From an uncultured Gemmataceae bacterium (GTDB taxonomy: Bacteria > Planctomycetota > Planctomycetia > Gemmatales > Gemmataceae): DNA of 64,000 nt. Below the pieces are notes generated by a model. The model saw only the letters and a program-made list of their open reading frames with translations. It was not told where the DNA came from and made no database searches. A program made the translations under genes and the position numbers. Below, piece after piece: positions 18,191 to 19,102 of this stretch. Every line of letters begins with the position of its first letter. Position 1 is the stretch's first letter. The stretch is from positions 1,120,001 to 1,184,000 of the forward strand of contig CAVVPN010000011.1 in assembly GCA_963750165.1 (NCBI GenBank), written 5' to 3'.

Positions 18191-18760
18191 TTACGACTTA
18201 GTCCCAATCAGGAAGTTCGCCGTAGCCGCCGGTGAAGGCGTCTTCGGGCGCCCCTCCCTTTCGTGGCTTGACGGGCGGTGATTGAGGTCGTTGAATCCTA
18301 CGCCTCGTTCCCACTGGACAAGCGCGTCTAGCGCATCCAGCGAGCCCCGATGCATTTGTGCTGCCAACTGCTTGGTTAATTCCAGCCCTTGCTCCGTGAG
18401 GTGTTCCTCCCGTTCGATGAGCGCGATCACCTGTCGAAACAGGTCGAAATCGCGCTTCTTACTGGGGAACCGCAGGGGGTGCTGTTGGAAGAATGGGACG
18501 ATAACTTCCCGCAACGCCACCCGGTTGCTAACCTCATAGCGAAAACAAAGACAATGGTTTGGTCGCCGATCACGTTGGACATAAACCTTGCCGGCTCCAA
18601 AGAACTCGCGGACTTCATCGAGCACGGGCCGATCAGCGGCCCGCAGTTTGAGGCAGAATTTGGGTTCTACCTTCGCCCGACGGCGTTGCGAGAGATTGAA
18701 GTGAACGGCAAAGCAGCCTTCACCATCGGTCAACCCGACCAGATAGTCGGCAGTCAGCAT
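18191..18760 (-). CDS. Intron-encoded single-motif LAGLIDADG homing endonuclease
   Basis: YLVGLTDGEGCF motif, FFGAGKVY, IVPFFQQHPL...KKRDFDLF; RBS GAAGGGAG; frame reads through DV/DVI into the 3' exon. Confidence 0.9.
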   Translation of the reverse strand: MLTADYLVGLTDGEGCFAVHFNLSQRRRAKVEPKFCLKLRAADRPVLDEVREFFGAGKVYVQRDRRPNHCLCFRYEVSNRVALREVIVPFFQQHPLRFPSKKRDFDLFRQVIALIEREEHLTEQGLELTKQLAAQMHRGSLDALDALVQWERGVGFNDLNHRPSSHEREGRPKTPSPAATANFLIGTKS

Positions 18761-19102
18761 CAGGTTTCTCCCTTCGGACGAAGGTTCGCTTCGTCTTACT
18801 ATGGATCAGCTGACTTCCTACCGCGTCGTCAGGATTCCTGCCGCAGTAGGATCTCCTTGGGTCACCTGTTGAACTATTTCCCACATTCCCAGGCAGGGTT
18901 ATTCAAGGCATCTTCGCCGAAGTACACATACGGCTCGATGCACCCCGTCACGCCCGAGACTGCGGTTCGGTCAGGACCCTCCGGACGGCGGTTACCCGTT
19001 ACGTCCTGTCCATACCCTACCGACCCGAGTCCTGCAAAGAGAGACCGGATTGGGGTGGATTTGCACCACCTAGTTCAAAAGGCTGCCAAGCGCCTTTAAT
19101 TG
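18281..19102 (-). mobile_element. Group II (IIC-like) intron in 16S rRNA at ~A1396/C1397, ~822 nt
   Basis: Interrupts CTTGTACA|CACCGCCCGT (2-nt CA junction ambiguity). DV UCGCUGGAU-GCGC-UAGAC-GCGC-UU-GUCCAGUGG; DVI GAGGCG...CG-A-CCUC-AAU; EBS loop UGUGUAC at 18922-18928; AAGUCAGCUGAUCCAUAGUA junction. Confidence 0.88.

Follow-up and report, generated by a model that had tools for sequence, protein, structure and literature searches.

We report that the 16S rRNA gene of an uncultured Gemmataceae bacterium (Planctomycetota), located in a 64,000-nucleotide (nt) stretch of its genome (assembly GCA_963750165.1, contig CAVVPN010000011.1, positions 1,120,001 to 1,184,000; hereafter the window), is interrupted by an 822-nt insert that is very probably a member of the rns-1396 (S1396) family: a small group II ribozyme of the IIC type that sits after A1396, carries a gene for a single-motif LAGLIDADG endonuclease and encodes no reverse transcriptase (RT). 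Splicing by this ribozyme, and cleavage and homing by its endonuclease, are predicted from the DNA and its homologues. The parts of the interrupted gene, numbered on the window and given in the order of transcription, with open reading frame abbreviated as ORF and exon-binding site 1 as EBS1, are as follows.

19103..20499, minus strand: 16S rRNA exon 1, up to E. coli position 1396 and ending ...CCUUGUACA; the local RF00177 match ends at 19103
18281..19102, minus strand: the insert, 822 nt, read as a group II (IIC-like) intron with a LAGLIDADG endonuclease gene on the basis of a local Rfam scan, homologue alignments and published table rows
19095..19102, minus strand: 5' terminal linker CAAUUAAA, preceding GGCG (19094-19091), which stands in for GUGYG
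18856..19090, minus strand: domain I, with helix I(i) (CUUGG 19090-19086 with CCAAG 18860-18856), a second closing helix (UUGAACUA 19078-19071 with UAGUUCAA 18876-18869) and internal helices IA to ID
18916..18934, minus strand: EBS1 hairpin with stem GCCG/CGGC and loop UAUGUGUACUU, in which UGUAC (18926-18922) pairs with exon GUACA
18817..18850, minus strand: domain II hairpin, an RNAalifold helix (alignment A3, columns 447-455/560-567) with compensatory changes
18769..18816, minus strand: J2/3 (AAGUCAGCUGA) and domain III (UCCAUAGUA...GAAGGGA), with an RF01998 match at 18843-18769 (31.2 bits, E = 0.0015)
18191..18760, minus strand: LAGLIDADG ORF of 189 codons, 160 in the intron (18760-18281) and 29 in exon 2, with motif LVGLTDGEG
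18310..18344, minus strand: domain V, with the CGC triad at 18342-18340, a G.U pair, a UU bulge at 18321-18320 and loop UAGAC
18281..18306, minus strand: domain VI (GAGGCGU...ACG[A]CCUC), in which A18288 is bulged, 8 nt away from the 3' end, which reads AAU
18150..18280, minus strand: 16S rRNA exon 2, from position 1397 (CACCGCCCGU...) to the 3' end; local RF00177 match at 18280-18162, model positions 1388-1520

The window holds a single 16S rRNA gene (RF00177, 1307.5 bits for the whole gene), and its split on the minus strand, from 19102 to 18281, falls between GUACA and CACCGCC, corresponding to E. coli 1396/1397. The local match to the bacterial small-subunit model (SSU_rRNA_bacteria) ends at 19103 at model position 1387 and restarts at 18280 at model position 1388, and 822 nt separate CUUGUACA from CACCGCCCGU. 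Judged from the window sequence alone, a 'CA' repeat at the boundary leaves a 2-nt ambiguity in the ends of the insert; we set the boundary at 1396/1397 because a homologue, L005 (GUACA-AAAUGAAAGG...CUCAAU-CACCGC, hyphens marking the junctions), and published Thiomargarita rows resolve it. The extent of 18281..19102, and with it the split of the 16S motif by some 822 nt, had been proposed by a model that read only the letters of the stretch and their ORFs (the sequence-only reading), and it agrees with the boundary set in this way. Both the 16S segment and the insert occur once in the assembly (9.6 Mb in 12 contigs, 93% complete); if each is indeed present in a single copy, the interrupted rRNA must somehow be made functional.

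A search with the endonuclease protein returned 82 clusters, of which about 57 show 66-83% identity, nearly all on short metagenome contigs. Scans of genomes and metagenomes gave 455 and at least 529 encoding stretches, respectively, from which 160 loci were kept, most of them from bacteria of the candidate phyla radiation (CPR); the labels Anaerolineae (L006), Planctomycetota (L004) and Alcaligenaceae (L005) each occurred once. At least 119 of the 160 loci carry the ORF inside an insert of 790-955 nt that is flanked by a 16S '...UUGUAC' exon and 'CGCCCGUCA', and in 41 no exon pair could be recognised within range. Metagenome bins often contain mis-assembled rRNA genes, and the insert could for that reason be an assembly chimera or a mis-join within the gene. 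Yet the contig is at least 2.3 Mb long, its exons join into a complete 16S, the same insert recurs at the same place in those independently assembled loci, and it lies on independent long contigs (159 kb for L004, 29 kb for L085), which leaves an assembly artefact next to no probability. As to L005, a metagenome-assembled genome (MAG) titled Alcaligenaceae, its exons are 97.5% and 90.8% identical to those of the window and have the GAGCC signature in common with them; on this account its contig is probably mis-binned and its label doubtful.

The architecture of the ribozyme is borne out by covariation among these relatives. From the end of the exon to the start of the ORF, RNAalifold predicted 73 pairs in an alignment of 98 sequences (A3, from which we had dropped duplicates, 7 sequences with spuriously short 5' segments and 3 longer than 440 nt), 63 of them with compensatory changes, at a covariation term of -17.6 kcal/mol. 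The predicted helices match the second closing helix of domain I (UUGAACUA/UAGUUCAA), helices IA, IB, IC and ID, the EBS1 hairpin, and domains II and III; the model has a single IC arm. Helix I(i) is paired in all 490 cells (100%), with compensatory changes in four of its five pairs, and the xGCG motif near the 5' end is invariant in the 98 homologues, with a linker of 6-8 nt upstream. The closure of domain I upon itself, through both of these helices, had already been seen in the sequence-only reading.

Domain V was compared across 104 distinct sequences, in which 99.5% of 1456 cells are paired and 7 of the 14 pairs show compensatory changes (221 cells). In controls on the same alignment, helices slid out of register were paired in only 34-47% of cells, and none of 500 shuffles reached the observed score. 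The triad is CGC in 91 sequences and CGU in 13, the G.U pair and the two base pairs beneath it are invariant, and a 2-nt bulge parts the lower from the upper helix, as had been read from the window copy. In the window copy and in 5/5 members of clade A, domain VI consists of 4 bp, then an A at -8 that bulges from the 3' strand, then 3 further bp, in keeping with the predicted bulged A 8 nt from a terminal AAU; in L004, L084 and L085 a compensatory double change converts CGU/ACG to CAU/AUG.

LAGLIDADG genes are typical of group I introns, and group I introns do occur in or beside the same 16S genes of relatives, with RF00028 matches at L009:1720-2492 (53.2 bits), L096:1513-2310 (57.7 bits) and, as a further case, L085:122-1054 (31.5 bits). 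However, RF00028 has no match in the insert of the window at E <= 10, whereas domains V and VI, the J2/3-domain III segment and EBS1 are group II features with covariation support. A group I identity is thus refuted for practical purposes by the Rfam scan and by the covariation of domains I to III and V, and we give it a vanishingly small chance; the assignment to group II (IIC-like), made at the outset, stands.

The loop of the EBS1 hairpin ties the insert to its exons. Its UGUAC is complementary to exon GUACA, with G18927 opposite the first exon-2 base, C, and the loop tracks the exon from clade to clade: GUGUAC accompanies GUACA-C in clade A, GGUGUGU accompanies ACACA(C)-C in L006, and GGUGAG accompanies CUCAC-C in the U1396 lineages. 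Indeed, every one of the 98 sequences has in this loop a Watson-Crick complement of at least 6 nt to the uninterrupted 16S junction of its own lineage, with a mean of 7.7 nt versus 4.0 nt in shuffled loops. The exposed UGUGUAC that the sequence-only reading had noticed at 18916-18934 is therefore not only complementary to the exon but changes together with it.

Several side observations concern exon recognition and branching among the more distant relatives. The loop of the U1396 copies, which are mostly from CPR bacteria, reads GGGYGGUGAG (A3 columns 340-366, loci L007-L163) and is complementary, G.U pairs allowed, to 8-13 contiguous bases of uninterrupted 16S. This guide pairing covers 1395 to 1402-1407, with exon 1 contributing 5 nt and exon 2 3-8 nt, and its mean length is 10.1 nt versus 5.5 nt for shuffled loops. 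The insertion point itself varies by clade, being 1396/1397 in clade A, 1398/1399 in L042, L086, L096 and L127 (exon GUACUCA-AAAUG..., 3' exon CCGCCC) and 1399/1400 in most CPR copies, and EBS1 shifts together with it among loci L004-L163. In alignment A2, the bulged A on the 3' strand of domain VI is missing from 89/91 CPR-type copies, many of which instead show an AA bulge on the opposite (5') strand, and an A at -8 is kept in 5/5 clade-A and 5/8 'AAU-CCGCCC' copies.

The gene within the insert is one long ORF on the sense strand (18760-18191). Its residues 7-111 match LAGLIDADG_1 (PF00961; E = 1.5e-13, 51.9 bits), and each half of the I-OnuI-family enzymes in the PDB matches it at E of about 1e-27 to 1e-20; this marks the product as a single-motif enzyme, presumably a homodimer. 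Across 31 aligned homologues 21 positions are invariant, and so are the motif residues D12, G13, E14 and G15, the acidic catalytic residue included. Over codons 1-135, comparison with the four closest DNA relatives gave pN of 0.19-0.21 and pS of 0.69-0.80, with dN/dS of about 0.07-0.12 where computable. By these substitution patterns the ORF, which is intact, is under purifying selection. The ORF listing of the insert contains no RT, in agreement with the earlier claim of a LAGLIDADG ORF in place of an RT, but the same claim had confined the ORF to domain IV, and this part does not hold: the frame reads on through domains V and VI and then through 29 codons of exon 2 before a stop. Its stop is UAG just upstream of domain V in the CPR relatives and L006, and UGA inside domain VI in L004, L005, L084 and L085; the window copy has lost this UGA, and its domain VI is one base shorter. 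As a side observation, the run-on tail '...NDLNHRPSSHER...' (window 18191-18280), which is exon 2 translated in frame, is shared by 12/31 aligned homologues, so protein databases hold translated 16S as the C-terminus of 'hypothetical proteins'.

A number of findings weigh against identifying the insert as a mobile, splicing group II intron. First, the intron begins CAAUUAAAGGCG and lacks the 5' GUGYG; the missing GUGYG is, however, a deviation published for rns-1396 and other families that bear a LAGLIDADG homing endonuclease (LHE), according to the sections of PMC13190283 and PMC4424553 that treat them. Second, no intron family was found in the window at the Rfam gathering thresholds, no Rfam group II model attains its gathering score here (RF01998 reaches 31.2 bits against a cut-off of 35), and RF00029 (domains V-VI) has no match in the insert even at E <= 10. 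At the homologous spot RF01998 matches 9/15 relatives at E <= 1 and lies above its cut-off in L018 (42.2 bits) and L006 (36.3 bits), the latter being the one among nine relatives scanned at the gathering threshold to pass; the only RF00029 match among relatives, of 25.1 bits, is to domain V of L022. Third, with the reading frame open to the end of the intron and beyond, the excised intron would be a non-stop mRNA. Fourth, since the genome is 93% complete in 12 contigs, it may contain a second, intron-less 16S copy. Fifth, the comparison with Thiomargarita uses the exon, EBS1 and EBS3 strings of a supplementary table rather than whole introns. Finally, the RNA runs, mostly soil metatranscriptomes, covered at most 0.18 of the sampled words, and four of them gave unitigs of 60-90 nt that lie on the exons only. 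The joints that skip 822 nt have at most 23 nt on their shorter side and fall in the universally conserved 1390-1405, where any bacterium's rRNA would yield them; they are thus evidence neither for nor against splicing here.

Some of these findings would also suit an intervening sequence that host RNases cut out without ligation, leaving the 16S in two pieces and the ribozyme a relic. The RNA runs gave no splicing evidence assignable to this organism, the Rfam models stay below threshold, and, as stated in Tsurumaki et al. 2024 (PMC11270868), RNase III takes out certain rRNA intervening sequences whose flanks are then not ligated. Conversely, a relic would not retain 99.5-100% pairing with many compensatory changes in domains V and I, nor an invariant triad with its G.U pair, nor a loop that tracks the exon; the break would moreover lie inside the decoding centre, and the founding paper of the family (Salman 2012, cited here through later work) speaks of 'self-splicing introns' in its title. 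We consider excision without ligation very unlikely. On the basis that the catalytic core is conserved, that the exon-binding loop co-varies with the exon and that the rRNA gene is single, we argue instead that the intron is spliced and its exons ligated in vivo.

The insert has published counterparts. The S1396 intron of Thiomargarita was described by Salman et al. 2012, as reported in the papers that cite it, and Zimmerly and Semper 2015 (PMC4424553) list this intron as the bacterial case of a group II intron with an LHE. Liu et al. 2026 (PMC13190283) characterize rns-1396 by a IIC backbone, a single-motif LHE in domain IV, the lack of EBS2 and IC2, and a 5' terminal linker in every member, and state that it is known only from four Thiotrichaceae genera. 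Table S4 of that paper gives for Thiomargarita nelsonii the exon ...CCUUGUACA, EBS1 UGUGUGUACC and 3' exon CACCGC, and for Marithioploca EBS1 UGCGUGUACC with the same exon flanks as here. The former EBS1 is identical to the loop of L004 and the latter to that of L005, L084 and L085, and the window loop, UAUGUGUACUU, differs by a few bases. Set beside these published strings and descriptions, the window intron has in common with the S1396 introns of giant sulfur bacteria the site ...CCUUGUACA-CACCGC, the EBS1 core GUGUAC, the 5' linker, the IIC-type core and a single-motif LAGLIDADG gene entering at domain IV with no RT, but its host belongs to the Planctomycetota and its ORF has no stop in the intron. 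The insert agrees with the published rns-1396 family in site, linker, loop and gene content, and we assign it to that family on these grounds.

Its relation to other known introns is more distant. Tsurumaki et al. 2024 (PMC11270868) list, for CPR bacteria, 53 group II-like insertions at position 1400 of the 16S, 39 of which are given as carrying LHE genes and none as carrying an RT. Compared with these 16IS9 elements, the window intron has a homologous ribozyme, a homologous endonuclease (40-50% identity), the same hot-spot and no RT. In contrast, the CPR splice site is 3 nt downstream (CUCAC-CGCCC), the CPR ORF ends at UAG before domain V, 89/91 CPR copies are without the bulged A on the 3' strand of domain VI, and their guide loop is GGGYGGUGAG. 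The LAGLIDADG introns of fungal mitochondria (Toor & Zimmerly 2002 and Mullineux et al. 2010, as covered in PMC4424553) likewise combine a group II ribozyme in an rRNA gene with an I-OnuI-related endonuclease that replaces the RT, and with extra 5'-terminal nucleotides, but according to that account they are IIB1 rather than IIC, mostly encode double-motif enzymes, and occur in organellar hosts and at other sites. With canonical bacterial IIC introns the window intron shares a small ribozyme, the CGC triad of domain V, a short intron-binding site 1 (IBS1), a J2/3-domain III segment that matches RF01998 and, presumably, the lack of EBS2 (no systematic search for a second exon-complementary loop was made); it differs by lying in a conserved rRNA site with a DNA endonuclease instead of an RT. 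Canonical IIC introns encode an RT and retrohome beside terminator stem-loops.

The novelty claimed for the element at the outset was accordingly overrated, since published work already describes this kind of intron at this site in giant sulfur bacteria, and a sister form in CPR bacteria. The new points are the Planctomycetota host (the window genome and one labelled MAG), the passage of the ORF through domains V and VI into exon 2, and the link between S1396 and the CPR elements; judged by titles and abstracts, the literature yielded no planctomycete case of such an intron.

That the host is a planctomycete, as first proposed, is supported on several counts. Over 1407 nt of 16S, exon 1 shares 91.9% identity with that of L004, the MAG labelled Planctomycetota; the neighbouring gene at 14824-17301 (minus strand) encodes PSCyt2 and PSD1 domains; Ser/Thr kinases, WD40 proteins and an ECF-sigma fusion are encoded near the 16S gene; and the adjacent 16S segment was matched in 202/400 sampled genomes of the same phylum. 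Within the 64-kb window no 23S or 5S gene follows the 16S gene, the sole other RNA being a tRNA (24896-24969, minus strand), and the rRNA operon is thus unlinked; the 23S gene sits on another contig. None of the 202 sampled genomes that hold the adjacent 16S segment has a close relative of the endonuclease, and a 342-nt query from the 5' part of the ribozyme found no match in 60 related genomes. Distant relatives of the endonuclease (34-41% identity) occur in 7 of the sampled genomes, at least 4 of them about 3 kb downstream of the 16S segment, a position that would be 23S. The intron is rare and patchy among sequenced planctomycetes, a distribution that fits horizontal acquisition without proving it; the intron may have been acquired across phyla, as suggested at the outset. 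A Thiomargarita microbiome paper, as far as its account goes, names Planctomycetota as the phylum most associated with Thiomargarita cells, which is a lead for host contact and no more.

The same distribution bears on whether the element still moves. The ribozyme might work while the intron is fixed and inherited vertically, its protein inactive or serving only as a splicing helper: the ORF has lost its stop codon and enters exon 2, a single rRNA operon leaves no intron-less allele in the cell to invade, and a close copy was found in 0/202 planctomycete genomes with the adjacent 16S segment. Strong purifying selection over codons 1-135, conservation of the LAGLIDADG acidic residue along with the 21 invariant positions in 31 homologues, the roughly 57 protein clusters at 66% identity or more in metagenomes, and a patchiness compatible with horizontal spread all speak against such immobility, and we regard it as unlikely, if less so than excision without ligation.

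The element had been called maturase-free. This is correct for the intron itself, which has no RT in its 822 nt, but not for the genome, in which RT-encoding group II introns occur elsewhere. The genome has seven RVT_1 matches. Of its conventional group II introns (loci L174-L176, L179 and L180), one comprises an RT ORF of 603 aa at C11:1755013, behind which RF00029 matches C11:1756560-1756630 with 55.5 bits; another, which is partial (C11:808973-812567), shows a domain V-VI match of 36.7 bits next to fragments of RT and GIIM. Because the genome carries at least one such conventional intron, the 16S intron may receive help in trans. A separate observation concerns a second LAGLIDADG ORF of the genome (L172, G000:C4:1018802-1019188), which is 28% identical to the first and lies inside a 23S rRNA gene; RF02541 spans the whole locus at 1734.5 bits, and L172 is probably a 23S intron.

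For the rns-1396 intron of the window we propose the following course of events. Pre-16S rRNA would be transcribed with the intron included, and the UGUAC of the EBS1 loop would bind the final five bases of exon 1 (GUACA). Domain V would then catalyse attack on the 5' splice site by the bulged A of domain VI, or by water, and ligation of the exons would restore GUACACACCGCCCGU at the decoding centre. The endonuclease, translated from the unspliced transcript and working as a homodimer, would cut intron-less 16S alleles, and double-strand-break repair would copy the intron into them. We infer this mode of homing from the enzyme family and from what PMC4424553 relates of the fungal relatives.

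It is possible that the S1396 copies of the Thiotrichaceae and the planctomycete, Chloroflexota-labelled and CPR 16IS9 copies form one mobile lineage, whose site would have slid by 2-3 nt (1396/7, 1398/9, 1399/1400) with the loop following, and whose CPR members would have turned that loop into an 8-13 nt two-exon guide and lost the branch A; we put this forward tentatively and with more doubt than conviction. For surveys of bacterial diversity, the insert adds 0.8 kb between the widely used 1392/1492 primer sites, and a 16S gene of this kind breaks short-read assemblies, so that carriers are under-counted in amplicon surveys and metagenome bins. This rare element, known from giant sulfur bacteria and from CPR bacteria, gains a third kind of host in a planctomycete that has a large genome and one 16S gene. 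The finding contradicts the recent statement, as worded in PMC13190283, that the bacterial family is confined to Thiotrichaceae, and lends support to viewing the S1396 and CPR elements together. If they do form one mobile lineage, a large free-living bacterium can depend for its ribosomes on a group II intron that has no maturase of its own.

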